Positions 12,820 through 48,551 of a stretch of 64,000 bases of DNA are shown here, piece after piece. Positions within the stretch are counted from its first letter, which is position 1. Each line of letters starts with the position of its first letter. This DNA is from an uncultured Actinomycetota bacterium (GTDB lineage Bacteria; Actinomycetota; Actinomycetes; Propionibacteriales; Propionibacteriaceae), in contig CAWKFH010000003.1 of NCBI GenBank assembly GCA_963848845.1, positions 257,471-321,470 of the forward strand, written 5' to 3'. The notes beneath the pieces are model-generated. The model had not been told where the DNA came from, made no database searches, and was given only the letters and a program-made list of their open reading frames with translations. The position numbers and the translations under genes were made by a program.

Positions 12820-15800
12820 CCAGCGCCGAGGTGTCCTCGGTGACCGAGCAGTCCGAGCCGATCAGGATGTGGCCGGCGTCGCCGGTCAGCGTCGCCAGCG
12901 CGCCGTCCTCGCTGCCCGTGCCGTGCCAGGTGCCGGTTACGGCCGGGTCGTCGCCGTACTTGCACGACCAGTTGCCGGAGAAGGTTGAGTCGGCGTCCAC
13001 GACCCCGGCATAGCCGGAGTTGTCGATGGTCTTGGCGATCTCGATCCCGGCGTACACCCGCTTGATCGGGTTCCGGATGCTGATCTCGTAGCTTCCGCCC
13101 GCGTCGGTGAGCTGCACAGCGTCGCCGATGGTCGCGGTTTCCCAGGCGAAGGAGTCGTCCTTGAGGCCGGCGTTGGTGCTGCCTTCGGTGGCCGAGCAGG
13201 TGGCGCCCAGCGGAATGTCGGTCCAGGTGGTCGAGCCGCCCGCCGCGACCTGACGGGTGCCCTGGGCGCCCGCGCCGGTGCAGGTGAGGGTGACCGGGAA
13301 GATCGCGTCGCCGCCGGCGGTGAAGCCGCTGGTCTCGCCGGTGACGGTCTTGGACACCACAACCTGTGCGGTCTTGGCGCTGATCGAGTTCACCACGCGG
13401 ACGCTGACCGGCTGCGCATCGTCGGTGGTGGTGAAGGTGATGCTGCGGCCGTCCTGGCCGGAGTTGGTCGCGTCGCCGCTGACGCTGAGGCTGACGCCGT
13501 CCCAGCGGTACGGGTCGATGGTTCCGGGCAGGTCACCCTCGGTCACGGTGCAGACCGAGCCACCGGGGATGGCCTCGGCCGGGGCCTTCGAGTCGCCGGC
13601 GTTGACGCTGAAACCGCCGGTGATCACCTCGCCCGTGATCGGGGTGCAGCTGTAGCTGAAGCCGAAGTCGGCGGCGGCAGGGAAGGCGTTGCCGGCCGTC
13701 CCGCCATCGACGCTCTTGGTGATGCTGAACGAGCCCTCGGCCCGGTTCAGCGTGTTCACAACGGTCGCGACGGCTCCATCCTTGCCAACGGTCGTCGGGT
13801 CGGGCGTCTGGGTGGACCAGGCATACGACCGATCCCCAGCAACCGGTGCACCCGGGTCGTCCTCCGAGACCGTGCAGACCGAGCCGACCAGGACGTCGAC
13901 GGAGGTCGCCTGCCCCTGGCCGGTGACGTTCCAGGAGCCGGCCTCGACGTGCTCGCCATTGTTGTAGTCACAGCGGTAGCCACCGGAGAAGGCGTACCCG
14001 CCGGTGTCGTGGCCGGTGTGGTTGACGACGTCCTTGGTGATCGAGAACTGGGCGTAGACCCGCCTGATGTCGTTGGTGACGGTGACCCGGCGGGCGTCCT
14101 CGGCCGCGGGCACCGTCACGGTGATCGGGTCGGGCACAGCCTTCCAGGCGTAGGAGGCGTTGGGCAGCGCGTCGTGCCCTTCCGGCGCTGCGGTCTCGGT
14201 GACGGTGCACGAGCTGCCGGCCGGCAGGTAAGGGGTGAGCCCGCTGGTGGCCGAAGGCCAGGTCAGGTTGAACGTTTCGGCGTAGTTGCCGGTTTCGCCC
14301 TGGGCCGCGGCGTCGCAGGTGACCGCGAGCTTGAACTCGGTGCCGCCGGCGACCTGGGTGGCGAAGCTGTCGATCTCCTTGCTCACCTGGAGGCGACCGT
14401 AGCCGATGCTGGTCGGGTTCGTGACGGTCACGGTCCCGGGGTCGGTGCGGGACACCGCGATCGCGCCACCGGTGAGCCCGGCGTAGGTGGGATCGCCCCA
14501 GACGTAGCCGGACTTCAACAGGTTGGCGGACGGTGCCTGTTCGGCGACCGTGCAGGCCACACCGGCGGGCACGGTGACGGTCTCGGTGCCACCGGCGGCG
14601 ATGCTGACGGTGCCGGCGTAAGGTGCGCCGCAGTCGTAGTCGAACTTGAAGTCCTTGCCGGACCCGTTGTAGCCGTTGCCGGTGACGACCTTGGCGAGGT
14701 TCAGGTTCACCAGGTCGCGCTGGAAGTAGTTGGTGACCGTGATCGTGCCGGTGCCGTTGGGGGTGATCGTGACCGCGCTGCTGACGGCGTGGTCGGCCCA
14801 CGCGTACGACGGGTCGACGAAGTCACCGGTCCTGGGTGCCTGGTCCTCACCGGTCACCGAGCAGGTGCTGGACGCCGGGATGCCGGAGATCGTCGCGGAA
14901 GTGCCCGTGGCCACGTCCACCGTGCCCGAGCTGACCGTGGCCCCACCGAGCTGGCAGGCGTAGCTGATCGGGAAGGTGCGGCCGGCGCCGCCGGTGTAGC
15001 CGGCGCCGGGGACGCCGGGGAGCGCCGAGATCGCCTTGGTGAGCTGCAGCGATCCCAGCTGGCGGGAGGTGCCGTTGGTGATGTTCACCGTCGAGGTCTG
15101 GTCGGCGTTGACGGTCACGGTCGCCGGGTTGGCCGGTGCCACCCAGACCCAGGACGGGTCGAGCAGGTCGGTGTCCGTCCCGGTCGGCGGGTTGGCTTCG
15201 GTGACGGTGCAGTTCGCGCCGGCAGGCACGTTGTCGATGGTCACCGGGGCACCGGCAGTGCCGTTGGTGGCGGCCGGGAAGACGGTGACCGTTCCCGACC
15301 TCACGGTGGCGGTGCCGTGCGTGCAGGTGTAGGTGGCGGAGAAGGCCTTGGCGGTGCCACCGGTGTAGCCGTTGCCGGTCACGGTCTTGGTGATCGCGAG
15401 CCTGCCGACCGCGTACTTGTTCCTGACGGTGCAGACCGCACTCTGGCCGGCGGTGAGGGTGAGGGTGCTGCCGTTGAGCGTGCCGCTGGTGCACGACCAG
15501 GCGCCGTCCTGGACGTAGCCGGGCGTGGTGGCGGGATTCGACCCGACCTCGGCGAGGTTGTAGCTGCCCGCGATCACCGTCCTTGTGGTGACCGCGGCGC
15601 TGCCGCCGGCGCCGGAGATGCTCTCGCCGGCTACCGTGCCCGAGCCGGTCGCCGACAGCGTCCAGTCGGCCGGGGTGGCCTGGGTTCCGCTCTGCCCGGC
15701 AGTGGTGACCTGCTTGACCAGGGTGAGGGTCGCCCGCGGCGTGTAGGTGTTCGAGTAGGTACAGGTGATCGGTGCCGCCGTAGCTGTCGGCGTCGAGTAG

Positions 15801-16924
15801 TCGCCGGAGAACCTGATCCCGGACCCGGTGATCGTCAGCCCGGCGATGTCGGAGTTCCCGGCACCATCCACGCAGGCGAGGCCGGTGAACGCCCAGCTGG
15901 GATCGGTGGGCGCCACCTCGGCGACGTTGATGGTCTGGCCGGTGACCAGGTTCGCGGTCTTGACGGCCTGGCCGGCAGCACCCGTCCCGGTGGGGGTGAG
16001 GGCGAAGTTGCTTCCCCACGGCGACCCGGCGACATCGCTGCTGGCCGTGAAGCTGAACGCCGGGTACGCGGGCGGCGCACCGTAAGGAGCTGCCACCTGC
16101 TTCCTGATCGTCAGCGGGCGCACCTCCTGGACCTGCGCGTAGAGGCAGCCGTTGCTGCTGGCGCTCTCCGGGGTGGTGAAGGTGGTGGACACCGTGCCGA
16201 GGCTGGTCACCGTTGCGGTGCACGCGGTGCCGGCCTGGGTTGGCGTGAAGCCCCGGACGATCACGGTGTAGGTGACACCGTCGTAGGTGAAGCTCTGGTC
16301 GCCGACCTGGTTCAGGAAGGTGGTGGTGTCGGGGGCGTTGACTCCGGTCGTCTCGTTCATCTCGTAGCTGAACGGGAGCGTCATGCCCATGAAGCCGATG
16401 TTCAGGTTGCCGCGGTAGTAGGTGCGGGTCAGTGCGTAGACGCCGTTGTTGTTGTGCGTCATCCGGCCAAGGTTGAAGATCGTGCCGGGCGCCAGCGAAG
16501 TGATCGAGGCCGGCGTGAAGCCGAGGGCGCTCTGCGTGCTGAGATCGAGCAGGGTGGTGCAGTTGCCGAATTGGCTGCCACTGCCGTGGCCGGCCCACAC
16601 CGTGTTCCCGGCCGCAGCGTAGACCGTGTTCCCGGTGATCGCTGAGGTGACCGGCACACCGCCGGTGTTGGTGACGGTTCCTGTCGTGGTCGCGCTGGTT
16701 GCCGTGCCAAGCCGGATGCAGTCGGCCGTGGAGAAGCTCGCGGTGCCGCCGCCGGCGGCACTGGCCGTGTAGCCAGTGTGCAGCGCCATCTGGGCCTGCA
16801 CGTTCTGAGAAGCTGAAACTGTGATCGTCGCTGCAGCGGCCACGGTTGGAACCGCGACCAGACCTGCACAGGCCAAGGCGAAAGCCAGGACCCAAGAGAC
16901 CCCTCGGTTTTTCAGCATGTTCAT
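12380..16924 (-). CDS. Adhesin fragment 1 (N-terminal): Sec signal peptide, ~230-aa N-terminal domain, then repeated Cys-pair beta-sandwich modules (DUF5979/SpaA-prealbumin-like by pattern). Sense ends near 12570.
   Basis: ATG at 16924 is preceded by AGGGGAAAG. The signal peptide is MNMLKNRGVSWVLAFALACAGLVAVPTVAAAA. Modules repeat the pattern F-x-Y-x-C ... G-x-x-C-T-V-T-E (e.g. FSATYTCTHG...NCTVTE, FPISYACQLG...TCSVTGE). The last ~60 codons of the ORF are Arg/Pro-rich out-of-frame read-through. Confidence 0.85.
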   Translation of the reverse strand: MNMLKNRGVSWVLAFALACAGLVAVPTVAAAATITVSASQNVQAQMALHTGYTASAAGGGTASFSTADCIRLGTATSATTTGTVTNTGGVPVTSAITGNTVYAAAGNTVWAGHGSGSQFGNCTTLLDLSTQSALGFTPASITSLAPGTIFNLGRMTHNNNGVYALTRTYYRGNLNIGFMGMTLPFSYEMNETTGVNAPDTTTFLNQVGDQSFTYDGVTYTVIVRGFTPTQAGTACTATVTSLGTVSTTFTTPESASSNGCLYAQVQEVRPLTIRKQVAAPYGAPPAYPAFSFTASSDVAGSPWGSNFALTPTGTGAAGQAVKTANLVTGQTINVAEVAPTDPSWAFTGLACVDGAGNSDIAGLTITGSGIRFSGDYSTPTATAAPITCTYSNTYTPRATLTLVKQVTTAGQSGTQATPADWTLSATGSGTVAGESISGAGGSAAVTTRTVIAGSYNLAEVGSNPATTPGYVQDGAWSCTSGTLNGSTLTLTAGQSAVCTVRNKYAVGRLAITKTVTGNGYTGGTAKAFSATYTCTHGTATVRSGTVTVFPAATNGTAGAPVTIDNVPAGANCTVTEANPPTGTDTDLLDPSWVWVAPANPATVTVNADQTSTVNITNGTSRQLGSLQLTKAISALPGVPGAGYTGGAGRTFPISYACQLGGATVSSGTVDVATGTSATISGIPASSTCSVTGEDQAPRTGDFVDPSYAWADHAVSSAVTITPNGTGTITVTNYFQRDLVNLNLAKVVTGNGYNGSGKDFKFDYDCGAPYAGTVSIAAGGTETVTVPAGVACTVAEQAPSANLLKSGYVWGDPTYAGLTGGAIAVSRTDPGTVTVTNPTSIGYGRLQVSKEIDSFATQVAGGTEFKLAVTCDAAAQGETGNYAETFNLTWPSATSGLTPYLPAGSSCTVTETAAPEGHDALPNASYAWKAVPDPITVTVPAAEDARRVTVTNDIRRVYAQFSITKDVVNHTGHDTGGYAFSGGYRCDYNNGEHVEAGSWNVTGQGQATSVDVLVGSVCTVSEDDPGAPVAGDRSYAWSTQTPDPTTVGKDGAVATVVNTLNRAEGSFSITKSVDGGTAGNAFPAAADFGFSYSCTPITGEVITGGFSVNAGDSKAPAEAIPGGSVCTVTEGDLPGTIDPYRWDGVSLSVSGDATNSGQDGRSITFTTTDDAQPVSVRVVNSISAKTAQVVVSKTVTGETSGFTAGGDAIFPVTLTCTGAGAQGTRQVAAGGSTTWTDIPLGATCSATEGSTNAGLKDDSFAWETATIGDAVQLTDAGGSYEISIRNPIKRVYAGIEIAKTIDNSGYAGVVDADSTFSGNWSCKYGDDPAVTGTWHGTGSEDGALATLTGDAGHILIGSDCSVTEDTSALGAPSSDPSYRWDSTPAYHGVTVAGAAANRLGVTNTLLRDTGKVRATKQLSGATGGYAPSGSFAGFSVTAVCYLNDPAESGHLEATAPRPSGRNRDRHRPGALRLDLPGRRRLVPEPEPAPRRLLRLGQRVGQLPRRRGDHAGHRCE

Positions 16925-17039
16925 TCTTTCCCCTAAAAAGAGATGACCATGTTTCGACTAGGAAGCTACACCACCGAAGGCACTTAAAGCCACCGAAACC
17001 GGAAAGATTCGGGAATGCTCTCCACTTTTCCCGGCTTTT

Positions 17040-17124
17040 GTCACCCGCAATGGGGACACTATTTCGAGAATGTCCCCATTCCGGGTGACCGGCATTTATC
17101 GCCGGATGTCCCATACCGGGTGAC
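17040..17124. repeat. Three copies of the locus-specific palindrome TGTCCYC-N3-5-CGGGTGAC upstream of the adhesin gene. The first two form a 19-bp inverted repeat.
   Basis: 17040-17058 is GTCACCCGCAATGGGGACA. 17071-17089 is TGTCCCCATTCCGGGTGAC, whose reverse complement differs from the first copy at one base, with a 12-nt spacer. 17107-17124 is TGTCCCATACCGGGTGAC. Confidence 0.7.
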
Positions 17125-17234
17125 GCCCGTAGTGGGGGGTCTTCGCCAGACCACGGGACGTGGTTGAGCAGGCCCGCGAACGCCACTCGCCGCGGCCTGG
17201 TCGCCCGAGCAGGCGGAAAGGGCCGGAACACGGC

Positions 17235-17270
17235 GGCGCTCCCTTACCTGAGCGCGGGAAAGGGAGCGCC
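17235..17270 (-). terminator. Candidate stem-loop terminator downstream of the tadE-tadG operon (second hairpin)
   Basis: GGCGCTCCCTT (17235-17245) pairs perfectly with AAGGGAGCGCC (17260-17270) across a 14-nt loop. There is no U-tract. Confidence 0.35.
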
Positions 17271-17306
17271 ACCGGACGACCAACAATCGAGCCGCGACCC
17301 GCAGGA

Positions 17307-17334
17307 ACCAGGTCGCCGGCCCCGGCGACCTGGT
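17307..17334 (-). terminator. Candidate stem-loop terminator about 70 nt downstream of the tadG-like stop
   Basis: ACCAGGTCGCCGG / CCGGCGACCTGGT is a perfect GC-rich inverted repeat in the gap after the stop at 17404. There is no U-tract. Confidence 0.4.
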
Positions 17335-17403
17335 CCGGTGCCCAGCAGCATGGCCAGACAATGAATTCAGAGCTGGCTCCGAGGTGCGGGATTGTTGTCG
17401 CTA

Positions 17404-18981
17404 CTAGATTCCTGGCAATGCCATGAGCCTGCCGTGCCCCGAGATCTGACCCATGGCCGTAAGGAAGATACCCTTCAGGTCGTCGGCCGATGCCCCGCAG
17501 AAGTAATTGTCGCGGTCGGAGTTCTCGGCCTTCCGCGCGGTTTCGGACGTGCAGTCAGTCGCCGTGCTGGCCGCCCCGTCCTCCCCCTTCGAGGCCACGC
17601 CGGCCAGCACATCGCGAACGAGCGCCGTGCTGCTGTCGTTGGTCTTGCAGCGCGCGGTGTTCACGTTGCCGTACCCGATCACAATGATCATTACGCCCTT
17701 GCTCTTCGCCTCGGTCGCGATCGCGGCCAGGTTGCTGCAGGCCTTCGCCGAGCCGCCGGCACCCGCAACGCCGATGTCGTAGGGGCTGCTCAGGCTGGTC
17801 GCCGAGTCAGCGCTGCTGAAGATCTCCGAGGGTGCGCCGTCGGTCTCGAAGATCACCACCTTCTTGGGCGTCCCGAGATCGTCCCTTGCCGGCATCCCAG
17901 CGAGGTTGCCCGCATCGAGCACGTAGTTCACCGCGCCCTTGAGTGCCGAAGCCAGGTGGGTGCCCTCATTCGTGTTGGCGGGCTGGCCCGCGTACTGGTT
18001 GCCGTCCCACCCCGCGGTCGGCGCCGGATACCGAACCTCGTCGGACGAGTGGTTCAGGCAGGTGGTCGAGGCCTTGTACAGCGCGCTGCTGGTGTTGACC
18101 TCGATGCCGTCCGTGGTGAGCGTGGAGTAGTCGCTGGAATACGGTACCGACACCCACTTGCCGGCGAACTTCCAGAGCTTGTTGGTGGCGCTCCAGGGCG
18201 TGCCGGACACGCGATAGTCGGCCGCAGTGAAGGCCTCCCCGCCCTTCGGCGTCTCATTCAGGCAACCGTCGCGGGCCCAGCCGATCGCGATCGTGCCGAG
18301 CGCAACGAACTGCTGCTGGCTGTTCATGACACTGAACATGTTGACCAGCCCTTCCTTCAACGCCGTCAAGGCGGAGGAGGACATCGACGGGGTGCGGTCG
18401 GCCATCACGACAACGTCCATCGGGTTCGGAATGGCCTTCCCGCAGAAGCCCCGGCAGGCGGCGGAAACCATTGTCCCGGTGTCGCCCTTATTGATCCCGA
18501 TCGCCGGCCCGAACGAGTAGTCCACCTCCTTGTTGTGCTTGACGACGATCGTGTTGCACTGCTGGCCGGCCGTGCAGGGCACCGAACAGATGTAGTCGTT
18601 GCAGGTCAGTGGATCCCAGACCTTGCTGGTGATCCCACACAGGCTCGAGACAGTCGCCCAGTCGGGCGAGTTGGTGATGTTGTTGTAAGCCACCACACAA
18701 CGCAGGGCAACGCTCGGCGTGATTGCGCCGAGCCCGGCGGCCACCATGTTGTCCGAGGCGAACTTCTCCGCATCCTCGATCGCCTTGGCAGCGTTGCCCG
18801 GCAACTGCTGGGCACCGGCAGCCGCGGCGGAGTCAAGGGAGTTCTGGAGCTGCTGGCGCTCATAGGCCAACTTGGCGATGTCCAGACCGAGCGCCGCCGA
18901 CCCCAGCAGCACCACCATCATCAGGGCAACGATGATCGCAACGGCCCCGCGCTCGCTTCGGTGTCTACCCAGCAGACTCAT
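17404..18981 (-). CDS. TadG-like pilus-associated protein with a von Willebrand A domain (525 aa)
   Basis: The start was moved to ATG 18981, 5 nt after the tadE stop. The N-terminus ERGAVAIIVALMMVVLLGSAALGLDIAKLAYERQQLQNSLDSAAAAGA matches the TadG-like N-terminal pattern. vWA/MIDAS-like motifs DVVVMADRTPSMSSS and VVIFETDGAPSE are present. Confidence 0.75.
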   Translation of the reverse strand: MSLLGRHRSERGAVAIIVALMMVVLLGSAALGLDIAKLAYERQQLQNSLDSAAAAGAQQLPGNAAKAIEDAEKFASDNMVAAGLGAITPSVALRCVVAYNNITNSPDWATVSSLCGITSKVWDPLTCNDYICSVPCTAGQQCNTIVVKHNKEVDYSFGPAIGINKGDTGTMVSAACRGFCGKAIPNPMDVVVMADRTPSMSSSALTALKEGLVNMFSVMNSQQQFVALGTIAIGWARDGCLNETPKGGEAFTAADYRVSGTPWSATNKLWKFAGKWVSVPYSSDYSTLTTDGIEVNTSSALYKASTTCLNHSSDEVRYPAPTAGWDGNQYAGQPANTNEGTHLASALKGAVNYVLDAGNLAGMPARDDLGTPKKVVIFETDGAPSEIFSSADSATSLSSPYDIGVAGAGGSAKACSNLAAIATEAKSKGVMIIVIGYGNVNTARCKTNDSSTALVRDVLAGVASKGEDGAASTATDCTSETARKAENSDRDNYFCGASADDLKGIFLTAMGQISGHGRLMALPGI

Positions 18982-18986
18982 GGCTC

Positions 18987-19442
18987 TCACTCGATTCTCA
19001 TAAGGCTCTGGCCCTGCAGGGTGATGGTTGGGTCGAAGCCCAGCACTACCGGCGCAAGCCAGGTGTGCACGTAGGTGAGCGTCACCGTGACAGTTCCCCC
19101 GGTGTCGACAGTCGCATCGTCGAGCGAGCACGCGCTTCCCGATGCGGTCTTGCAGGTGACGACGACAATCGTGCCGGAGTCGGTGGCGCCGGGCATTGCG
19201 GCGATCGCCGCTTCCGTCGCCGCTTGCGCCTGGAACGTATTGCCACCGAGTGCCGCCGACCGTGACCCCTCGCGGGCCGCGTTCGCAACCACGGCCTGGG
19301 TGGTCATCACCGTTCCGAACTCGACGATACCGAACACGAGCATGATGAGGACGGGGGCTACCAACGCGAATTCAAGGGCAGCGGCCCCCCGCTGCGACTT
19401 ACGCGATCTCCACTTGGTGAGCACGCGCTTCCATTCTGCCAT
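18987..19442 (-). CDS. tadE: TadE-family pilus assembly protein / minor pseudopilin (151 aa)
   Basis: The N-terminus QRGAAALEFALVAPVLIMLVFGIVEFG is the TadE signature. GGAG lies 10 nt upstream of the ATG at 19442. Confidence 0.8.
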   Translation of the reverse strand: MAEWKRVLTKWRSRKSQRGAAALEFALVAPVLIMLVFGIVEFGTVMTTQAVVANAAREGSRSAALGGNTFQAQAATEAAIAAMPGATDSGTIVVVTCKTASGSACSLDDATVDTGGTVTVTLTYVHTWLAPVVLGFDPTITLQGQSLMRIE

Positions 19443-19476
19443 TTAAACTACTCCGGACCCCTCCAGAATCAATCGG

Positions 19477-19505
19477 AGTCTAAGGCCGGGTGCAGAGCGT
19501 GTCAA
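19477..19505 (-). promoter_or_regulatory. Candidate sigma-A-type promoter of the tadE-tadG operon
   Basis: On the minus strand: TTGACA (19505-19500), a 17-nt spacer, then TAGACT (19482-19477). The -10 lies about 35 nt upstream of the tadE ATG. Confidence 0.45.
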
Positions 19506-19658
19506 TGCAGCGGTGGATCTCCATACATTAGTGCAGGTCGGCCGATTGGTTGGGATTGTTGTCGGAGTGTCGCACCGCGAGATCTGGTGCATGATCCCTA
19601 GCCAGCGGGACAATGCAGGCAAAGCTCAGGCACCGCTGATCGGCTTCAACCAATCCCG

Positions 19659-19716
19659 GTGTCCCCCTTTCGGGCGACACTGCTCCAGGTGCCCTTGTCC
19701 CCCTTTCGGGCGACAC
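19659..19716. repeat. Two exact copies of the 21-nt palindromic unit TGTCCCCCTTTCGGGCGACAC, 15 nt apart
   Basis: 19660-19680 and 19696-19716 are identical. Each can fold as GTGTC(C)CCC-TTTC-GGG(C)GACAC. They sit between the stop of the vWA gene (19743) and the tadE promoter. Confidence 0.75.
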
Positions 19717-19742
19717 GAAAAGCCGCAGAATGCCCCCAAACC

Positions 19743-21254
19743 CTATTGCTGCGGGAACCCGATTTTCTCGAGCACTCGGCGGCGTCCACTGACGTAGGCG
19801 ATTTCCAGGTCACCCATTTGGATGACATCGCCGTCAGCCACCAGCCCGCTGGCCCGATCGGCGCCGAGGTGGGCGTTGATGCGCACTGCCCGCTGGCCGC
19901 GGGTCGCTCCCCTGGCGCCGACCAGCACACCGCTGAGTCCGGCCAGTTCACCCGCACCCTCTGGCGCTGCCAACTTCATTCGCCGGCCCATGAGCACAAT
20001 GTCCGCAACCCCGCGCCCGTCCCGGGTGAAGGCGAGCAGTCCGTCCATGCGCGGGGTGAGCAGCGTCCGGCCGATCAGCAGCAACACGGCGCCGAACGCG
20101 ACCAGTACGGCGATGACGCCAAGGGTTGGCAGCAGGACCGGTGGGAGCTTGAGTGGTGGCGGCGGAACCACTGCGCTCCCGACGAGTTCCGGGGCGAACA
20201 CCAGCCCGAGATCCTTCTCCAGCACGTTCGCCCAGGGAGAGGCCACCTTCGCGACCAGGCTCACCCCGGCATCGGATCCCGGCGTTCCCGACACGGTCGC
20301 CTGCGCCTGGACGGTGACGTGGCTGCCGGGTTCGAGGGTCACCTTGTCCGGCAAGCCGGAAAGGGTGACCCTCAGGCCCGCCGGCGCCTTCACCTGCAAC
20401 CCGCTCAGTTCCACCGGCACGTGCGCATAGGGTGAGGTGAACTCGAGGCTCACCGCCGCCGGCGCATTGTTCGCCAGCGCCGAGGTGAGGTCTCCGGTCC
20501 AGGCCACCTTGATCGGCGCGGCCAGTTCGTCCTTGAGGGCTTTCGCTGCCTGCAGCCGGACCAGGTCTCCGGCGACCTGGGCAAAGCGGTTGCCGACCTC
20601 GGTCGAACTCACCTCCGTTGCCAGGGGGAACACCTTCTTCAACAATGCTGCGTCCGTGGTGGCCTTGAGGGAGACGGCGTAGGCGGCAACCTCATGACCG
20701 ATGGCGAGTTCGGTGGCGCGGGTCCTCAGCTTCTTCCATGCCGCCGACCTGTGGTCCGCGTACGCCGAACCCGGGAGGGTGTCCGTCTTCCCGTCGGTGA
20801 TCAGGATCAGGGCGGTCAGCCGGTGGGTGTCCTCGCTCTCGAGGGCCTTGAGCCCGGCGGCGATGCCGGCACCGATGTCGGTGTGGTCGCCAGTGGCTCT
20901 GGCCGGCAGCTTGGCCACGATGGCGTCGGGGTTCTTCCCGATCACCCCGCGGAACCGGGCTTCAGCCCTGGCATCGAACGTCAGCAGGGAGACCCGGTCG
21001 TCGGCGTCGAGGTCGGCAAGGAGCTTGCGCAGCTCGAGCCGGACCGCTTGATAGCGCCCGCCCTGGTTCATCGATCCCGAAGTGTCGACCACCACGACGT
21101 AGTCCGCCGGCTCGGGGGCCAGTCCAAGTGCCTTGATGACCTCGTCGACACCGATCGCGGCCGGAGCAGCCTGCGCCGGCACTGGGGCCGCCAGCAGGCA
21201 GGAGCCCGCCAGGCCCAGGAGGGCCCCGACCAACTTCGTTCTGAATCCCACCAC
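19743..21254 (-). CDS. Secreted or membrane-anchored von Willebrand A domain protein with a C-terminal TM helix and a ~105-aa cytoplasmic FHA-like tail (503 aa)
   Basis: GTG start is preceded by AGAGGGG. The signal peptide is LLGLAGSCLLAAPVPAQAAP. MIDAS motif YVVVVDTSGSM and LILITDGKTD are present. The TM helix is PTLGVIAVLVAFGAVLLLIG. The tail ends ...GLVADGDVIQMGDLEIAYV; the FHA-like call is tentative. Confidence 0.75.
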   Translation of the reverse strand: MVGFRTKLVGALLGLAGSCLLAAPVPAQAAPAAIGVDEVIKALGLAPEPADYVVVVDTSGSMNQGGRYQAVRLELRKLLADLDADDRVSLLTFDARAEARFRGVIGKNPDAIVAKLPARATGDHTDIGAGIAAGLKALESEDTHRLTALILITDGKTDTLPGSAYADHRSAAWKKLRTRATELAIGHEVAAYAVSLKATTDAALLKKVFPLATEVSSTEVGNRFAQVAGDLVRLQAAKALKDELAAPIKVAWTGDLTSALANNAPAAVSLEFTSPYAHVPVELSGLQVKAPAGLRVTLSGLPDKVTLEPGSHVTVQAQATVSGTPGSDAGVSLVAKVASPWANVLEKDLGLVFAPELVGSAVVPPPPLKLPPVLLPTLGVIAVLVAFGAVLLLIGRTLLTPRMDGLLAFTRDGRGVADIVLMGRRMKLAAPEGAGELAGLSGVLVGARGATRGQRAVRINAHLGADRASGLVADGDVIQMGDLEIAYVSGRRRVLEKIGFPQQ

Positions 21255-21268
21255 AAACCCCTCTTAGA

Positions 21269-21328
21269 TGTCCTCTTTCGGGTGACTCATACCCCGAATA
21301 ACTCATTTCATGTCCCCTTTCGGGGGAC
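21269..21328. repeat. Two copies of the locus-specific palindrome in the vWA/flp divergent region
   Basis: 21269-21286 is TGTCCTCTTTCGGGTGAC and ends 14 nt from the vWA GTG start. 21311-21328 is TGTCCCCTTTCGGGGGAC. Confidence 0.7.
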
Positions 21329-21495
21329 CGTGGAGAGCCTAATGGGAACAGCCTAATACGAATCTCAGACTTCTTCGAGCAAACCTTTGACAAACCACTG
21401 GGGGCGTGTGTAATCATTCTATCGAAGTGACTCTGGGGGGAAGGTTTCCGGGGTCACCAGCGGAAACCTATCCCAACACCTGAAAGGGGTCTCTC

Positions 21496-21681
21496 ATGAA
21501 GAACCTACCCGCCAAGATCGTCGGCTCCATCGTCGCCACCAAGGAACGGGGCGCCACCGCCGTCGAGTACGGCATCATGGTCGCGCTCATCGCCGCCGTC
21601 ATCATCACCGCCGTGACTCTGCTCGGCAGCAACATCAGCGGCCTGTTCAACTCTGTCGCCGGCGATATCGCCGTCCCGTGA
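21496..21681 (+). CDS. flp: Flp/Fap-family type IVb pilin precursor (61 aa)
   Basis: MKNLPAKIVGSIVATKERG/ATAVEYGIMVALIAAVIITAV carries the canonical Flp G/xTAxEY processing motif followed by a hydrophobic helix. AAAGGGG RBS precedes the ATG. Confidence 0.9.
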   Translation: MKNLPAKIVGSIVATKERGATAVEYGIMVALIAAVIITAVTLLGSNISGLFNSVAGDIAVP

Positions 21682-21699
21682 TCTCGGATTGAAGCCGTT

Positions 21700-21735
21700 G
21701 CGAGGCGCCCCGGGCTGCCGCCCGGGGCGCCTCGC
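21700..21735 (+). terminator. Perfect 15-bp GC-rich stem-loop 19 nt after the flp stop (terminator or attenuator)
   Basis: GCGAGGCGCCCCGGG - ctgccg - CCCGGGGCGCCTCGC. It sits between flp and the assembly genes. There is no U-tract. Confidence 0.55.
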
Positions 21736-21772
21736 TCCTTCCACAAGAGACGGTCACGCCGGAAGACCAAGT

Positions 21773-21791
21773 GTCACCCGGACGGAGGACA
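21773..21791. repeat. Inverted-orientation copy of the locus-specific palindrome between flp and cpaB
   Basis: GTCACCCGGACGGAGGACA is the reverse complement of TGTCCTCCGTCCGGGTGAC. Confidence 0.55.
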
Positions 21792-21852
21792 AATATCCCC
21801 CAGGGGGCATTCCCCCCACCCGGTCGACAACTAAACGGCCTACGAGATTATC

Positions 21853-21884
21853 GTTACTTGTCACCCTTAAGGATGACAAGTAAC
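21853..21884. promoter_or_regulatory. 32-bp near-perfect AT-rich palindrome (candidate operator) upstream of cpaB
   Basis: GTTACTTGTCA-C-CCTTAAGG-A-TGACAAGTAAC has 11-bp perfect arms, a palindromic CCTTAAGG core and only one mismatched pair. Its core, GTCACCC-TTAA-GGATGAC, resembles the locus motif. Confidence 0.5.
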
Positions 21885-22027
21885 GCCGATCCGGCCCGCG
21901 AATCCGGTTATTGACAAGGCTCAAGAAGAGCAATACTCGTCACGGCCTGCTGGCGGCAGGAAGACGAGCGCCACCCGACAGCCCAGCTGTCGACCATTGT
22001 TAACAACTCGAGTCCAAGGCGGTCCCA

Positions 22028-22735
22028 ATGCAACGCCGAATCATCGCCGCGGTCGCCGCGGTCCTCCTCGCTGGCATCGGCGCGGCCATGCTCTACAGCT
22101 ACGTGAACACTGCCGAAGCCAGAGCGTTGGCCAAGATGGAGACGACCACCGTGCTGGTCGCAACCAAGGTCATCCCCGCCGGCACCCTCGGCGCGGACCT
22201 TGCCCCGTTCGTCGCACTCAAGCAGCTACCCAAGATTGCCGTGGTCGATGGCACTCTCACCGATGTGGTCAACGTTGGCGACCTCGTCACCACCAGTGAC
22301 TTCCAGATCGGCGAGCAGCTCCTTGCTGCGCGGTTCGGCGAACCCAACATGACCACCGCCGGCGAGGTCGACGTCCCCTCCGACCTGCAGCAGCTGACCG
22401 TCCAGCTTGGTCCTGACCGCGTCATCGGCACCAACATCGCGCCCGGGAACAAGGTCGGCGTCATGATCTCCAAGGAAGAGAACCAGGTGGGCCTGACCAA
22501 GCTGGCCTTCCGCGATGTCCTGGTCACCAGGGTGCAGGGCGCGCCCGGCGCGCCTGCAGAAGCCGGCGACGTCGCCCCCTCCAGCGACCTGCTGGTCACC
22601 CTGGCGATCTCGCCCCAAAGCGCAGCCCAGATCGTCTGGGGTGCCGAGTTCGGCCATCTCTATCTGGTCCTTGAGCCCGTGGATGGCGACCACGACAGCT
22701 TGCCTCTGGTCAAGGCGAAGACAGTCCTCGGATGA
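22028..22735 (+). CDS. cpaB: Flp pilus assembly protein CpaB/RcpC (SAF-domain, 235 aa)
   Basis: N-terminal TM helix IIAAVAAVLLAGIGAAMLY is followed by a SAF-like segment (VLVATKVIPAGTLG). It is the first gene after flp and shares an ATGA overlap with tadZ. Confidence 0.75.
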   Translation: MQRRIIAAVAAVLLAGIGAAMLYSYVNTAEARALAKMETTTVLVATKVIPAGTLGADLAPFVALKQLPKIAVVDGTLTDVVNVGDLVTTSDFQIGEQLLAARFGEPNMTTAGEVDVPSDLQQLTVQLGPDRVIGTNIAPGNKVGVMISKEENQVGLTKLAFRDVLVTRVQGAPGAPAEAGDVAPSSDLLVTLAISPQSAAQIVWGAEFGHLYLVLEPVDGDHDSLPLVKAKTVLG

Positions 22736-23934
22736 GCCCGGTACTGGTCATCAGCCGCAACCCCCAGGTGGTGGACCTGGTTCAGCAGGCCTGGGGGCCC
22801 GATGGCTACGCGATTGCGCCCGAACAGTTCCCCGACAATGTGCCGGCGCTGCTGAACCTCCTGCAGGGGGCACCTCTCCCCGTGATCGCCGTGCTCGACC
22901 CGACCGAACAGGTCACGGCGGCACTCGCATTGGCTGTGGAACTTGATCGGAACTTCAGCATCGCTTCCATCCTCGTGAGTGACCAGGCGGCGGAGCTCGG
23001 TCTCGCCGCCATGCGGGCCGGGGTGCGCGACATCGTCCGCCCGGGCGCGCCTGTGGAAGAGATGAAGCATGCCTTGGAGCGGGCCGCCACCCACTCCGGG
23101 CCGCGGGTGCAGCAGAAGCCGGGTACGCCCGGTGCAGCCACCCAGCGGGGGAAGGTGGTCACGGTGGCTTCGCCCAAAGGTGGCGTGGGGAAGACCACCG
23201 TGTCCACCAACCTCGCTCTCGGTCTGGCCCAGAAGCTGCCCAAGTCGACGGTCCTTGTCGATCTCGACCTTCATTTCGGAGACGTCGCCAGCGCCCTCAA
23301 CATCAGTCCTGACTACACCTTGCCGGACATGGCCCACGGGCCGGCCAGCCACGACCCGCTGGCCCTGAAGAGCTACCTCTACCTGCACCAGACCGGGTTG
23401 TACGTCGTGCCGGGCTCGGAGTCCCCGGCAGCGGCGGACGCGGTCACCTCCAAGGAGGTGGTCAACCTCCTGGACACCCTGGCCGGCCAGTTCAAGTACG
23501 TGGTCGTCGACACCGCGCCAGGCCTCAGCGAGCACACCCTCGCTGTGCTGGACCAGACCGACATCCTGGTCATGGTGACCAGCCTTGACGTCCCCGGCGT
23601 CCGTGGCCTCCGCAAGGAATTGGACACCCTGCGCGACATCGGCCTGCTGCTGGAGTCCCGCACCGTTGTGCTCAACTTCATGCACCCCAGCCGTGGGATC
23701 TCCGTCGCGGACGTCGAGGCATCAATCGGCCGCAAGGTGGACTTCCAGATACCGCAGTCGAACTCGGTTCCGATCTCGGTGAACCAGGGCATCCCGCTGC
23801 TCCAGGGCGGCAGCCGAGATCCGGTCACGAAGGCGCTCCGCGCCCTCGTCGACACCATCGACAACGACGAGAAGGCCGGCAACAAGGGCCGCCGCTTCCT
23901 CGACTTCGGGCACAAGAAGGAGGCGGTCCAATGA
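22732..23934 (+). CDS. tadZ: TadZ/CpaE pilus-localisation ATPase (pseudo-receiver N-domain plus ParA/MinD-type ATPase, 400 aa)
   Basis: Deviant Walker [26 protein letters not shown] is present with a receiver-like N-terminal ~120 aa. ATGA overlaps occur on both sides. Confidence 0.85.
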
Positions 23935-25532
23935 ACCTCACCGAGCGAGTCCTGGCCGTGCAGAAGGGTGAGCGCGGGATCCCGCGCGACTCGAACTCGC
24001 CCAGGGCCGGTTCCACCCCGACCCGCGCCTTCGAGCCCGGCTCCCCCGCGGCCCCCGCAGCGCCCGCAGCCCCCGCCGGCGGCAATGCGCCGCCGGCCCC
24101 CTGGCTGCCGGTGCCCGAGTCCACCCAGCAGCCCGCCGCGGCACCGTCGGTGACCTGGGCGCCGCCAACCTTGACCGGGACGGACGACCAGCATCGCCTG
24201 GCCGCCCGGGCACCGGCGCCGCCGCTGGCGGTGGAGACCCACGACGCGCTTTCCCGAATCAAGGAGGACGCCGTCGAGCAGCTGTTCGAACGGATGGGGG
24301 CGCGGCTCAACGACCCGAACCTCGACGAGGCAGCTCTGCGCGGCCTGGTTCAGCAGGAACTCAACGCGATCATCGAGGGTGGGAAGCTGCCGCTGACCGC
24401 CCGCGAGCGGCAACGCCTGATCCGCGAGGTTCACGACGACGTCCTCGGACTCGGTCCGCTGCAGCCACTGGTCGACGACAAGGCCGTCACCGAGGTGATG
24501 GTGAACGGCCCGTACAAGGTTTACATCGAGCGCGCCGGCAAGCTGACGCTCTCCCAGGTCCGCTTCAAGGACGAACCCCACCTGCGCCGGGTCATCGAAC
24601 GCATCGTCAGCCGGGTCGGCCGCCGCATCGACGAGTCCTCGCCGCTGGTCGACGCCCGCCTCGAGGATGGCTCCCGCGTGAACGCGATCATCCCGCCCCT
24701 GGCGGTGAGCGGGTCGACGCTGACCATCCGCAAGTTCTCCAAGGATGCGCTCACCGTCCCCGACCTGATCAAGCTGCGGACGCTCACCCCGGAGATCGCC
24801 GAACTGCTCAACGCCTGTGTCGTCGCCCGGCTGAACATCATCGTCTCCGGCGGCACCGGAACCGGCAAGACGACCCTGCTGAACATCCTGTCGGGGTTCA
24901 TTCCGAGTACCGAGCGCATCGTCTCGATCGAGGACGCCGTCGAGCTCCAGCTGCAGCAGGACCACGTGGTCCGGCTGGAGTCCCGCCCGCCCAACGTCGA
25001 GGGCAAGGGTGAGGTGACGATCCGCGACCTGGTCAAGAACTCGCTGCGCATGCGACCCGACCGCATCATCGTCGGCGAGTGTCGTGGCGGCGAGGCCCTC
25101 GACATGCTCCAGGCCATGAACACCGGCCATGACGGATCGCTGTCCACCATCCACGCCAACACCACCCGCGATGCTCTTGCCCGGCTCGAGACCCTGGTGC
25201 TGATGGCCGGCATGGACCTGCCGCTGCGGGCCATTCGCGAGCAGGTCTGCAGCGCCATCGACGTGATCATCCAGATCACTCGTCTTCGGGACGGCAGCCG
25301 ACGGGTCACCTCGGTGACCGAGGTACAGGGCATGGAGGGCCAGACCATCACCATGCAGGAGGTCTTCGGGTTCGACTACTCCGCCGGGATCGCCCCCGAC
25401 GGCACCTTCCTCGGCCAGATCCGGCCCACCGGCGTGCGCCCGGGCTTCACCCAGAAATTCGATGACTACGGGATCCAGCTGACCCCCGGCATCTTCGGCA
25501 CCGGCGACCTGTGGTCGGGGGGGCACCGCTGA
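23931..25532 (+). CDS. tadA: TadA/CpaF secretion ATPase (533 aa, with an Ala/Pro-rich N-terminal extension)
   Basis: Contains [19 protein letters not shown], Walker [14 protein letters not shown], and [33 protein letters not shown]. Confidence 0.9.
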
Positions 25533-26476
25533 TGGGCTTCTTCGCATCCCCGATGGCCCTGACGACCGGCTGGACACTGCTCGGCCTCGCCGGTCTGCTG
25601 ACGTTCGTGCTGTTGATGCTGCCCAACCGTCGGCTGCCCCTTGCCCGCCGACGGCCAGGTTCGCAGGACACCGGATCCGGCCTGAAGAAGATTGCCGGCG
25701 CGGCCACCGACACCGTCGACAAAGTCATGCGCGGCCGCGGCGGCTCGTTGAACGCAATCCTCGAAGAAGCCGGCGTGACCACCCCGGCCAAGGACCTGAT
25801 CGTCATCGTCGGCGCCGCAACCCTTGCCTGTTTCGCGTTCGGACTGGTGGCCGGGCAGCCAGTCGTCGGAGTGCTGCTGGCGCTGCTGTGCCCGATGGCT
25901 GGCCGGATGGTGCTGTCCATGCTGGCGGATCGGCGCAGAAAGGCCTTCGGCGGACAGCTGGATGAGATCCTGCAGATGATGGCCGGCAGCCTACGCGCCG
26001 GCTACAGCCTGCCGCAGGCGGTGGCGACCATCTCCCAGGAGGCGGAGCAGCCGGTCTCGACGGAATTCGCCCGGGTGACCAACGAGGCCCGGGTTGGCCG
26101 GTCGATGATGGAATCCCTGGATGACGTCGCGGCGCGGATGCGCAACGAGGACTTCTACTGGATCACCCAGGCCATCGGGATCAACCGGGAGGTCGGCGGC
26201 AACCTCGCCGATGTCCTCGACAACGTCAGCAAGACGATCCGCGAGCGCACCCAGATGAAGCGGCAGGTGGCAGCGCTGGCCGCCGACGGCAAGCTGTCGG
26301 CAATCATCCTGATGCTGCTGCCCTTCGTGATCACCCTGGTCCTGTTCGTCCTGAACCCGACCTACATCATGAAGCTGTTCACCGAACCCATCGGCTGGAT
26401 GATGCTCGGAGTTGGCGCGATCATGCTCGCCATCGGCGGCTTCTGGCTGGCCAAGGTAATCAACCTCAAGTACTAG
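25532..26476 (+). CDS. tadB: TadB (type II secretion system F-family inner-membrane platform protein)
   Basis: ATG 25532 overlaps the tadA stop (TGATG); an alternative GTG start lies at 25511. The TM - soluble T2SSF-like domain - TM layout is present (QMMAGSLRAGYSLPQAV, GKLSAIILMLLPFVITLVLFVLNP). Confidence 0.8.
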   Translation: MGFFASPMALTTGWTLLGLAGLLTFVLLMLPNRRLPLARRRPGSQDTGSGLKKIAGAATDTVDKVMRGRGGSLNAILEEAGVTTPAKDLIVIVGAATLACFAFGLVAGQPVVGVLLALLCPMAGRMVLSMLADRRRKAFGGQLDEILQMMAGSLRAGYSLPQAVATISQEAEQPVSTEFARVTNEARVGRSMMESLDDVAARMRNEDFYWITQAIGINREVGGNLADVLDNVSKTIRERTQMKRQVAALAADGKLSAIILMLLPFVITLVLFVLNPTYIMKLFTEPIGWMMLGVGAIMLAIGGFWLAKVINLKY

Positions 26477-26485
26477 GACGCGCAC

Positions 26486-27385
26486 ATGCAACCCATCGCC
26501 CTCGTCGCGATCGCCGCCCTGACGCTCGGCCTCGGCACCCTGCTCTGGTTCGCTTTCGGCGGCGGAACTGCCGGACGGAAGCAGATGCTCGCCAACCTGC
26601 GCCGCCAACAGGAGCAGCCCAAGGAAACGATCAGCATTCCCACCGACCAGCAACCGGGCGGCCTGGCGAGGCTGCTGCGCCGCGGCCTGCCGGTGCCACT
26701 GGTGAAGTCGATCACCAAACTCTGGTCCGGTGCCGGACGTCCCGAGCACAACACCCCCGACCGGGTCATGGCGATGATGGCCCTGTTCGGCCTGGTGGGC
26801 GCGGTCGTCGGCATCCTGGCGTCCCGGGTCGTCGCGGCGCCGCTCGGGATCATCCTGGGCCTCGGCATCTTCGTGCTCGCCTTCTTCCTCCCCATGGTCC
26901 GGCTGCAGAGCGCCGGAGCCGACCGCAAGACCGCGATCAAGCGGGAGTTGCCGGACACGCTCGACCAGATGAGCATCGCGGTCAACGCCGGCCTCGGCTT
27001 CGACGCAGCCATGTTGCGGGTGGCCAGGAACGGGAAGGGGGTACTCGCCAACGAACTGGTGCGCACGCTGCAGGACATCCAGGTCGGGCAGACCCGGCGG
27101 GTGGCCTACGAGGACCTCGCAACGCGCACCGGGGTGGACACGTTGCGGAGGTTCGTCCGCTCGATCATCCAGGCCGAGGCCTACGGCATCGCCCTCTCCG
27201 ACGTCCTCCAGGCCCAGGCGGACGAGCTACGGCTGGAGCGGAGCCAGCACGCCGAGCGGAAGGCGATGGAGATCCCGGTGAAGGTGGTCTTCCCGCTGAT
27301 CCTGTTCATCATGCCGGCCATGTTCATCGTGGTGATGGGCCCGGCGGTGATCGGCATCATGGAAGCCTTCGGCAGCATGGGCTGA
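26486..27385 (+). CDS. tadC: TadC (type II secretion system F-family inner-membrane platform protein)
   Basis: Contains LPDTLDQMSIAVNAGLGFDAAM...IIQAEAYGIALSDVL and C-terminal TM helices. It lies directly after tadB. Confidence 0.8.
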   Translation: MQPIALVAIAALTLGLGTLLWFAFGGGTAGRKQMLANLRRQQEQPKETISIPTDQQPGGLARLLRRGLPVPLVKSITKLWSGAGRPEHNTPDRVMAMMALFGLVGAVVGILASRVVAAPLGIILGLGIFVLAFFLPMVRLQSAGADRKTAIKRELPDTLDQMSIAVNAGLGFDAAMLRVARNGKGVLANELVRTLQDIQVGQTRRVAYEDLATRTGVDTLRRFVRSIIQAEAYGIALSDVLQAQADELRLERSQHAERKAMEIPVKVVFPLILFIMPAMFIVVMGPAVIGIMEAFGSMG

Positions 27386-28026
27386 TGGAGCACCTCACCG
27401 GAGTAGTGGTCGGTGCCCTGGTGGCCGCTCTGGCCGCGTGGGCGCTGAACGGCGTCATGCTGCGGTTGGCCACCTCCGACGCCCCGATCCTGCACTGGCG
27501 CCTGCAGGTGCCGGTGGCAGCGGTACTCGGCGGCTTGGCCGGCCTGGCCGGCAGCTGGGCCGAGACCCTGACCTTCGTCGTGCTCGCGATCGCTTCCGGG
27601 CTGCTCACCGTGATCGACCTCGCCGAGGAGCGGCTCCCGGACGCGATCGTGCTGCCACTGATCCCGATCACCGCAGCACTGCTGGCCGTGGCCGCCTGGG
27701 TCACCGGAGACTGGGGTGCGCTGCTGCGTGCCCTCGGGGCGGGGGCAGCCCTGTTCGTGTTCATGTTCGCGATGATGATCTTCTCCCCCGACCTCGGCTT
27801 CGGCGACGTCAAGCTGGCTGCGGTGACCGGCATGGTCGGTGGCTGGTTCGGCTGGGGAGCCGTACTGCTCGGGTTCGGCGCAGCCTGGATCACCTTCGCC
27901 GTCCTCGGGGTGGTGATGCTGGCCACCCGCAAGCGCCACGGCCGGGGGTCCTTCGCTTTCGGCCCGTTCATGGTCATCGGAGCCGTCATCGGCGTCTTCT
28001 GGGCCGGCGCCGCCCTCGCCTGGTGA
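27385..28026 (+). CDS. tadV: Prepilin peptidase, A24 family (TadV/CpaA type, 213 aa)
   Basis: A polytopic membrane protein with the two catalytic Asp contexts LLTVIDLAEERLPD and GFGDVKLAAVTG. It has a 1-nt overlap with the tadC stop. Confidence 0.85.
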   Translation: MEHLTGVVVGALVAALAAWALNGVMLRLATSDAPILHWRLQVPVAAVLGGLAGLAGSWAETLTFVVLAIASGLLTVIDLAEERLPDAIVLPLIPITAALLAVAAWVTGDWGALLRALGAGAALFVFMFAMMIFSPDLGFGDVKLAAVTGMVGGWFGWGAVLLGFGAAWITFAVLGVVMLATRKRHGRGSFAFGPFMVIGAVIGVFWAGAALAW

Positions 28027-47579: not shown

Positions 47580-48001
47580 CACTTCCTCCCCCGGAATCGG
47601 TCCACCACGGCCTCGGCACTTGCCTCCACCAGGACCACCCCCGGCCACCCCGGTACCAGCACGTCGCCCAGCGGGACGTCGCAGCTGACGGTTGCGCTCA
47701 CCACCGCCGGCCGACCTGGCTGAGTTGCCAGCGCTGTGACGTCAACCTCGACCCCGAGGCGCAGGCAGCGGAGCCCACCGACGGCGGCCTGGGCCGCGGC
47801 CAGCTCCCGGGCGACCCGCGTGGCACCGCCCGGATCCCGCGCCTGGGATATCCCGCGAGCGGCGGCTCCTGCGGCCTGCTCGACGGTGGCGCGGGCCAGC
47901 CAGGTCCGCGCGCCGCCAACCACAAGGCCGACGAGCAACACCAGCACCGGGACGACCAGGGCGAACTCGACCGCCACCGACCCCCGCTGCTGCCCGGTCA
48001 C
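47579..48001 (-). CDS. TadE-like pilus assembly protein (140 aa; Rv3654c-type by pattern)
   Basis: The N-terminus QRGSVAVEFALVVPVLVLLVGLVVGG is TadE-like. It has a GTGA overlap with the upstream gene. Confidence 0.7.
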   Translation of the reverse strand: MTGQQRGSVAVEFALVVPVLVLLVGLVVGGARTWLARATVEQAAGAAARGISQARDPGGATRVARELAAAQAAVGGLRCLRLGVEVDVTALATQPGRPAVVSATVSCDVPLGDVLVPGWPGVVLVEASAEAVVDRFRGRK

Positions 48002-48530: not shown

Positions 48531-48551
48531 CGGTTCTCCTTGAAGGTGGTT

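Follow-up and report, generated by a model that had tools for sequence, protein, structure and literature searches.

A palindromic unit in the regulatory gaps of an actinobacterial tad pilus and adhesin locus: a probable operator array and its resemblance to the BldM box

We analyzed a 64,000-nucleotide stretch (hereafter, the window; G+C content 69%) of contig CAWKFH010000003.1 from an uncultured bacterium of the Propionibacteriaceae, which carries a Tad pilus locus, tad-1, together with a giant adhesin gene. A short palindromic unit occurs in four intergenic gaps of this locus: between tadG and the adhesin gene, between the gene for a vWA-domain protein and tadE, in the divergent region between the vWA gene and the flp pilin gene, and between flp and cpaB. 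Judged by its conservation in related genomes, the unit is a real and strongly conserved cis-regulatory element, ordinary in kind, and probably a transcription-factor operator array. The units are probably double-stranded DNA operators of one dimeric DNA-binding regulator, and a docking site for a single regulator is the most likely function because units are found in every regulatory gap and at the same places in all the relatives examined. By analogy with a published binding site, this regulator would most likely be of the NarL/LuxR (GerE) type, with a BldM-like specificity.

The palindromic unit and its conservation

The pattern TGTCCYC-N3-5-CGGGBGAC matched seven times on both strands of the window, all in the four gaps, and 100 dinucleotide-preserving shuffles of the same sequence gave a mean of 0.00 matches and a maximum of 0. 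All nine copies described in the initial annotation were found where they had been placed, two of them (17107-17124 and 21860-21878) being looser members that fall outside the strict pattern. A much looser pattern, GTCC-N6-12-GGNGAC, was not enriched (23 matches compared with 17 expected), and the signal therefore resides in the full arms. No copy was found in the remaining intergenic regions of the window, in agreement with the earlier scan by eye. The accompanying statement that the copies sit only in the four non-coding gaps held for the nine listed, but not for a tenth good copy that had been left out, which falls within the vWA coding region at its 3' end; this tenth unit is common to the closest relative (L001) only and was not seen in the more distant loci. 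The array thus comprises 10 sites in the window, those of the gaps standing in pairs or triplets. A second tad-like locus of the window (~47-53 kb) has no copy, so the unit is specific to tad-1.

The spacer had been described as variable (N3-5). This did not hold up: most copies share one fixed geometry, and the apparent variation is a parsing artefact caused by a run of C. The unit is an 18-mer, GTC-N-YCC-N4-GGG-N-GAC, or 20 bp with its T and A flanks, with the consensus tGTC-n-CCC-gnnc-GGG-n-GACa (a 20-bp palindrome, tGTCnCCC-N4-GGGnGACa). T is present at −1 in 71% of the units and A at +1 in 73%. The arms are invariant and the central 4 nt are free, as the initial annotation had said of arms and centre. 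Position 4 and its mirror, position 15, are also free; at position 4 of the half-site, A is found in 42%, C in 47% and G in 10%, and it is in the flp-cpaB units alone, in their right half, that T prevails. When GTC-N12-GAC alone was required inside the gaps, nearly all of the resulting 18-mers proved to be units, YCC occupying positions 5-7 and GGG positions 12-14. The exceptions in length are 17-mers, namely the two copies upstream of vWA and the copy at 17107-17124. A hairpin with a bulged base and a variable loop was considered and dropped, as the re-parsing of the C-run fits most units to the one 18-bp geometry.

Homologues of the vWA protein that are 54-75% identical to it are annotated as Propionicimonas or Propionibacteriaceae. 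By a profile search from their alignment, we obtained 19 syntenic loci (L001-L019) from metagenome-assembled genomes of this group, with vWA proteins 54-74% identical. Every fetched locus contains the motif, and under a relaxed definition at least two units are present in every gap: in 16 of 16 loci between cpaB and flp, 18 of 18 between flp and vWA, 17 of 17 between vWA and tadE, and 8 of 8 between tadG and the adhesin gene. The relaxed definition gave 176 matches in 358 kb, with 168 of them inside 27 kb of gap DNA and 8 in the remaining ~320-330 kb. A generic scatter was not seen, since the other intergenic regions of the window and of the 19 flanks of ~20-21 kb each have none. Furthermore, in an unbiased comparison of 7-mers between gap and non-gap DNA, most of the top-ranked words were fragments of the unit, and a scan of metagenomes with a two-unit pattern yielded ~20 further tad loci with the same arrangement. 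Within the DNA covered here, the proposal of a shared cis-element joining pilus, vWA proteins and adhesin into one regulon is thus supported by the orthologous conservation in all gaps, and neither of the two outcomes named beforehand as refuting it, generic scatter and absence from the orthologous loci, was observed.

Each gap keeps its own variant across species. In the flp-cpaB gap, the variant is GTC(A/C)TCC...GGGTGAC, and a TGTCAYCC-N4-GGGTGACA copy occupies the position of A-2 (Table 1) in most of the orthologous loci that have this gap; in the window, the A-2 core lies within a longer perfect palindrome with 12-bp arms. Upstream of vWA, the variant consists of 17-mers, GTCNCCC-GNAA-GRGGACA, always in the vWA sense and ~43 bp apart. 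The proximal one of these, B-proximal, has the same position and orientation in 18 of 18 loci, and its end lies 14 nt from the GTG start codon of vWA, the distance given in the initial annotation, and 3-5 nt from the Shine-Dalgarno sequence; the start of B-distal is 42 nt from that of B-proximal. In the vWA-tadE gap, the variant is GTC(G/C)CCC-N4-GGG(G/T)GAC, and C-1 lies 27 nt past the vWA stop codon. On the adhesin side, a triplet of orientation -> -> <- is kept in the adhesin-bearing loci. Its last two units, D-c and D-b in the window, together make an inverted repeat of 19 nt, which in L017 is free of mismatches, and the weaker D-a has a counterpart at the orthologous position in L012, L016, L017 and L019. 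In L007, an inserted gene splits the adhesin gene from tadG and the units remain with the adhesin gene; in loci that have no adhesin gene, the adhesin-side units are missing. These units accompany the adhesin gene, not tadG.

In the mechanism that we propose, a dimeric helix-turn-helix regulator encoded elsewhere in the genome would bind each unit, and each GTCnCCC half-site would take one monomer. The 2-4 sites per gap, 31-43 bp apart, would permit cooperative occupancy, and the pilus subunits, the assembly machinery, the vWA proteins and the giant adhesin would be switched together. Five transcription units would be served: flp, cpaB-tadZABCV, vWA, tadE-tadG and the adhesin gene.

Operator DNA, RNA hairpins and mobile repeats

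Could the units instead be RNA hairpins in the transcripts, such as stabilizers in 5' untranslated regions (5'-UTRs) or between cistrons, processing sites, attenuators or sites for an RNA-binding protein? We consider this unlikely for the array as a whole, with its strongest case in the tandem copies of the vWA 5'-UTR that abut the ribosome-binding site. Several features there weigh against the operator interpretation. The 17-mers upstream of vWA deviate from the fixed spacing and look RNA-like; all two to three copies in the flp/vWA gap share one orientation relative to vWA in 18 of 18 loci; their centres read G-N-A-A on the sense strand (88% G, 85% A and 85% A), which is GNRA-like; and the Shine-Dalgarno sequence always follows the end of the last copy at a distance of 2-5 nt. 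More generally, the unit is a palindrome, good folds were obtained for several copies (−11 to −15 kcal/mol, z = −2.2 to −4.6), and in most loci those of the vWA-tadE gap begin 25-45 nt past the vWA stop codon. To the same side belongs the lack of a uniform position of the sites relative to the promoters, whose locations and transcription starts were read from sequence conservation only (the vWA −10 was aligned by eye). With the candidate vWA −10, conserved as TAnnnT in all loci, both B units would fall at about +15 to +74 of the vWA mRNA. The units lie at about −105 and −147 of the inferred flp promoter, the C units at about −200 and −235, that is, ~200-235 bp upstream of the inferred tadE promoter, and the D units would be centred at about −92, −124 and −160 of the candidate adhesin −10. 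For tadE and the adhesin gene the sites thus stand well upstream of the inferred promoters, and for vWA downstream, an arrangement compatible with activation, repression and looping alike.

On the other hand, the arms show no covariation across the 19 species and are invariant in sequence. The 18-mers are mismatched in mid-stem, at position 4:15, in 40% of cases, and this variable pair is paired in 59% of the distinct units compared with 50% expected from composition. In the flp-cpaB gap, T5 stands opposite G14 in 43 instances and is never changed to T-A or C-G, and in sense RNA of vWA and of cpaB, this position and its equivalent on the vWA side are conserved as C.A mismatches, whereas G.U pairs would arise only on the antisense strand. 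The fold scores of the window units, taken as sense RNA, range from z = +0.57 to −4.6, the best fold reaching about −15 kcal/mol. The universally conserved vWA-proximal unit folds at −2.8 kcal/mol with z = −0.09, no better than shuffles, and two adhesin units have z = +0.57 and −0.59. As the arms do not covary and the fold stability varies, the conserved property is sequence rather than stability. Furthermore, on the adhesin side the copies come after the GC hairpins of tadG itself and ahead of the inferred adhesin promoter, and Rfam gave 0 matches at the gathering score in the 64 kb. Intrinsic terminators were discarded, as none of the units is followed by a U-tract (typical flanks are 'acaagg' and 'accggg') and a terminator scan flagged none at the unit coordinates. 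CsrA-like GGA sites were also dropped, the GGA being within the stem; to our knowledge, CsrA is not typical of Actinobacteria. The earlier view that an operator fits better than terminators is borne out, and the fixed geometry with its free centre, the missing covariation, the poor fold of the best-conserved copy and the match of the core to the footprinted BldM box favor an operator over a hairpin as well. The vWA-side 17-mers might still have a double use, being bound as DNA by the regulator and acting, beside the ribosome-binding site, as an element of the 5'-UTR.

That the units are repetitive extragenic palindromes (REPs), or miniature mobile palindromes, that accumulated at this locus appears highly improbable. 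REP elements, with their REP-associated tyrosine transposases (RAYTs), include short GC-rich palindromes of the form GTCGCCC-N4-GGGCGAC, often paired like the tad-1 units, and this very form was found as dispersed repeats in unrelated metagenomic contigs of low to middle GC content, with 'tgtag/ctaca' flanks and in places beside an open reading frame (ORF) whose N-terminus, read by eye only, resembles an IS200/RAYT-type transposase. However, REPs are dispersed genome-wide and show no positional conservation between species, whereas the tad-1 units are restricted to the locus, with positions, copy number, orientation and gap-specific variants conserved orthologously across loci with 54-74% identical proteins; the absence from the other intergenic regions of the window and of the 19 flanks counts against REPs as well.

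The two-unit scan bears on how far the pattern can be used by itself. It returned 69 metagenomic loci, about half of which were unrelated REPs, tandem repeats or other GC palindromes, which means that the pattern by itself has no diagnostic value away from its context. In other high-GC contigs, pairs of tGTCCCCC-N4-GGGGGACa stand before genes for Flp pilins, SipW-type TIGR04089 proteins and a YkwD-family secreted protein. These wider occurrences hint at a broader surface-structure regulon.

Resemblance to the BldM Group I box

BldM is an orphan response regulator of the NarL/FixJ family, and its Group I box in Streptomyces venezuelae, 5'-TCACcCgnncGgGTGA-3', is a homodimer site footprinted with DNase (PMC4125116). 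Both this box and the tad-1 unit contain a 16-bp palindrome of 6-4-6 geometry. They also agree in their TC.CCC / GGG.GA arms, whose inner triplets are CCC/GGG, and in preferring g..c at the centre, and both occur in intergenic regions of developmentally or surface-related genes. Many units match 12-13 of the 14 specified bases, for example, GTCGCCCGAACGGGTGAC, and the geometry of A-2 is the exact Group I form, TCACCC-N4-GGATGA. With up to two mismatches of 14, the BldM consensus, which was published and derived independently of these loci, gave 46 matches in the 27 kb of gaps compared with 6 in 319 kb elsewhere, a ~90-fold enrichment; around the bldM orthologues of other high-GC actinobacteria, it gave 2 matches in ~66 kb.

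By this analogy, it is possible, but tentative, that the regulator belongs specifically to the BldM-like family. Several points speak against it. The A at box position 3 and its mirror T (position 14) are free in the tad-1 units, and the tad-1 palindrome is extended by conserved flanks, tGTC...GACa; the specificity is therefore not identical to that of BldM. The tad-1 sites also differ in standing in arrays of 2-4. The host is a non-sporulating, Propionicimonas-like actinobacterium, and BldM is reported mostly from developmentally complex actinomycetes (PMC4255298), although BldM homologues exist outside Streptomyces (bioRxiv 10.64898/2026.01.14.699351). Tad pilus, vWA proteins and adhesins are not named among the BldM targets in the passages of PMC4125116 that were covered, and pilus or Flp is not mentioned in that text; the supplements contain no site sequences. 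No ORF with a LuxR/GerE-type helix-turn-helix domain was found in the window or within 10 kb of the orthologous loci L001-L019, which extends the remark of the initial annotation that no regulator gene lies inside tad-1. The only response regulator gene of the window (62936-63625) was rejected as a regulator in cis, being of the OmpR type and 41 kb away.

The bldM gene itself was traced in three further loci, with a BldM query sequence that gave 100% matches to Streptomyces proteins. L090, L091 and L093 carry bldM orthologues ~70% identical to the Streptomyces protein in distant actinobacteria, in a neighborhood that is kept: groES-groEL, a WhiB-family and/or MerR/B12-binding gene, bldM, and then inosine monophosphate dehydrogenase genes. 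No units were found near these three loci, which likewise counts against the BldM link, and there is consequently no sign of BldM autoregulation. BldM acts as an activator in Streptomyces.

The units might instead be operators of a dimeric helix-turn-helix family that has nothing to do with BldM or NarL, the resemblance to the BldM box being a coincidence among GC-rich palindromes. The unconserved A at box position 3, the conserved T and A flanks and the concentration of BldM in sporulating actinomycetes suit this explanation, and a TetR gene beside a similar pair in L045 indicates that other families can adjoin such palindromes. We nevertheless regard it as quite unlikely, as the units share with the BldM box its 6-4-6 geometry, inner triplets and g..c centre, and the published consensus is so strongly enriched in the gaps. 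Half-sites with G/C tracts are, moreover, typical of GerE-type proteins such as DosR (GGGAC) and RamA (G-tracts). The boxes of BldD, CRP/GlxR, DosR, TcrA, PhoP and MtrA did not fit in geometry.

A second BldM site was also considered. The BldM-WhiI heterodimer recognizes the Group II box, 5'-TGnnCCGnnCGGGTGA-3', in which a canonical CGGGTGA half is joined to a different half starting with TG (PMC4125116). The vWA-side 17-mers (TGTCCYC-TTNC-GGGTGA) are alike in style and in their constant orientation. However, against Group II (TGnnCCG-nn-CGGGTGA) the spacing is 1-2 nt longer, both in the 17-mers read as TGTCCYC-TTN-CGGGTGA and in the TGTCCCC-N4-CGGGTGA units, and with the half spacing off by 1-2 nt, the Group II box does not align. 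WhiI is reported almost only from complex actinomycetes (PMC4255298).

The concept of a GerE-type regulator that is encoded elsewhere and coordinates pilin and assembly genes has parallels with other motifs in other phyla or lineages. The LuxR-type proteins VisN/VisR control Tad/Flp pili in Liberibacter and Agrobacterium, and the TcrA box of the zoospore pili of Actinoplanes is a direct repeat, GCA(A/C)CCG-n4-GCA(A/C)CCG. In line with the proposed class of regulator, two unrelated high-GC contigs (L066 4688-6841 and L059 3568-5518) carry the palindromes GTCGCCCTCATGGGCGAC and GTCGCCCATTCGGGTGAC as a pair in a divergent promoter region, with the gene for a small secreted protein on one side and an operon on the other. 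A membrane protein is encoded in this operon, and in L066 also a NarL-type response regulator (Response_reg + GerE). From its sequence, this looks like an autoregulated system whose operator has the same general form as the tad-1 units.

Regulation of the Tad pilus in Gram-positive Actinobacteria is poorly known, and a literature search found no operator described for actinobacterial tad loci. The present analysis offers a precise cis-element, with 10 sites and a clear consensus, and names a candidate class of regulator for the entire adhesion module of Propionicimonas-like bacteria, a group often met in sediments and anaerobic digesters. Should the link to BldM be true, a developmental regulator of Streptomyces would be tied to an older function in surface attachment; if it is false, the element could still serve as bait for the capture of its regulator by DNA affinity. 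A bolder conjecture, which we think unlikely, is that the motif and its trans-acting regulator, a BldM orthologue or close paralogue, constitute an ancient actinobacterial 'surface-appendage regulon'. Such a regulon would take in Tad/Flp pili, vWA proteins, giant adhesins, SipW-type fibres and secreted CAP-domain proteins, and the role of BldM in the development of aerial hyphae would descend from the control of adhesion structures in unicellular actinobacteria.

Gene map, promoters and leader sequences

The identities of the genes in the window were checked by Pfam (Table 1). Genes for Usp, an aminotransferase, YceI, citrate synthase and similar proteins flank tad-1.

Table 1. Palindromic units, genes and inferred promoter elements of the tad-1 locus (window coordinates).
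Feature	Position	Strand	Sequence or basis
Giant adhesin gene (N-terminal ORF), DUF5979 + SpaA_2 repeats	12380-16924	-	Pfam
Candidate adhesin -10 hexamer	16963-16968	-	TAGCTT
Unit D-c, upstream of adhesin gene	17040-17058	-	minus strand reads TGTCCCCATTGCGGGTGAC
Unit D-b, upstream of adhesin gene	17071-17089	+	TGTCCCCATTCCGGGTGAC
Unit D-a, weaker 17-mer	17107-17124	+	TGTCCCATACCGGGTGAC
TadG-like/vWA gene	17404-18981	-	Pfam
tadE	18987-19442	-	Pfam
tadE-tadG promoter	19477-19505	-	TTGACA-17-TAGACT; near-consensus
Unit C-2, vWA-tadE gap	19660-19680	+	TGTCCCCCTTTCGGGCGACAC
Unit C-1, vWA-tadE gap	19696-19716	+	exact 21-nt repeat of C-2
vWA-domain protein gene	19743-21254	-	Pfam
Tenth unit, inside 3' end of vWA coding region	19809-19826		GTCACCCATTTGGATGAC
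Unit B-proximal, 17-mer	21269-21286	+	vWA sense reads GTCACCCGAAAGAGGACA
Unit B-distal, 17-mer	21311-21328		TGTCCCCTTTCGGGGGAC
Candidate vWA -10 hexamer	21350-21355	-	TAGGCT
flp promoter	21388-21417	+	TTGACA-18-TAATCA; inferred from sequence
flp pilin gene	21496-21681	+	Pfam
Unit A-1, flp-cpaB gap	21773-21791	-	minus strand reads TGTCCTCCGTCCGGGTGAC
Unit A-2, flp-cpaB gap	21852-21885		core TGTCACCCTTAAGGATGACA at 21859-21878
Assembly operon cpaB-tadZ-tadA-tadB-tadC-tadV	22028-28026	+	Pfam

The inferred promoters are themselves conserved. That of flp is kept as CTTTGACAAA...GTGTAATCATTC in nearly all loci, and that of tadE has the −35 hexamer TTGACA in all loci, with TAGACT or a close variant at −10. 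The adhesin −10 candidate is conserved as (G)TAGCTTTC in most of the adhesin-bearing loci. Upstream of the tadE promoter (19477-19620, minus strand), there are two further conserved short boxes, 'ctgGCTAGg/tGACTAGg' and 'CGACAC(g/t)CC', the latter containing GACAC, which resembles the WhiA motif. A sigma-28/WhiG promoter element, CCGATA, was found nowhere in the window.

The adhesin region as a whole (876-16924, minus strand) is made up of several very long ORFs that overlap and differ in frame (12380-16924, 9592-12819 and 876-8114); the tail of the first is unusual in being rich in arginine and proline. The arrangement suggests a single giant gene split by frameshifts or repeat assembly errors, or else several tandem adhesin genes. 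The second tad-like locus (~47500-53000, minus strand) has a T2SSE ATPase gene (50287-51678) flanked by Pfam-negative ORFs and small ORFs.

In L005, L009, L010 and L015, the flp-cpaB gap holds another flp pilin gene in tandem with the first. The flp 5' leader (21424-21495, plus strand) hardly varies between loci and includes a hairpin, GGTTTCC-N12-GGAAACC. After the flp stop codon, a strong GC hairpin, GCGAGGCGCCCCGGG...CCCGGGGCGCCTCGC (21701-21737, plus strand), is present in all loci and is probably a terminator or an attenuator that sets the ratio of pilin to machinery.

At least 13 orthologous loci share the conserved 5' leader of cpaB (21927-22030, plus strand), which runs for ~100 nt from GCAATACTCG to the ATG. 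Two hairpins that show compensatory changes, P1 (CTCGYC/GRCGAG) and P3 (CGRCAGC/GCTGYCG), were predicted by RNAalifold, and an invariant CGCC pairs with the Shine-Dalgarno region AGGCGG. There are 25 pairs in total, 7 of which are changed on both sides, and in L007 the sequence of the P3 stem is entirely different with the pairing kept. The leader, to which Rfam gave no match, is on the strength of the predicted fold a candidate for a new cis-regulatory RNA that precedes the tad assembly operon. A leader of similar sequence, 'TACTCGTCAC...GGTGGCGG', follows motif arrays in the unrelated loci L028 and L070.

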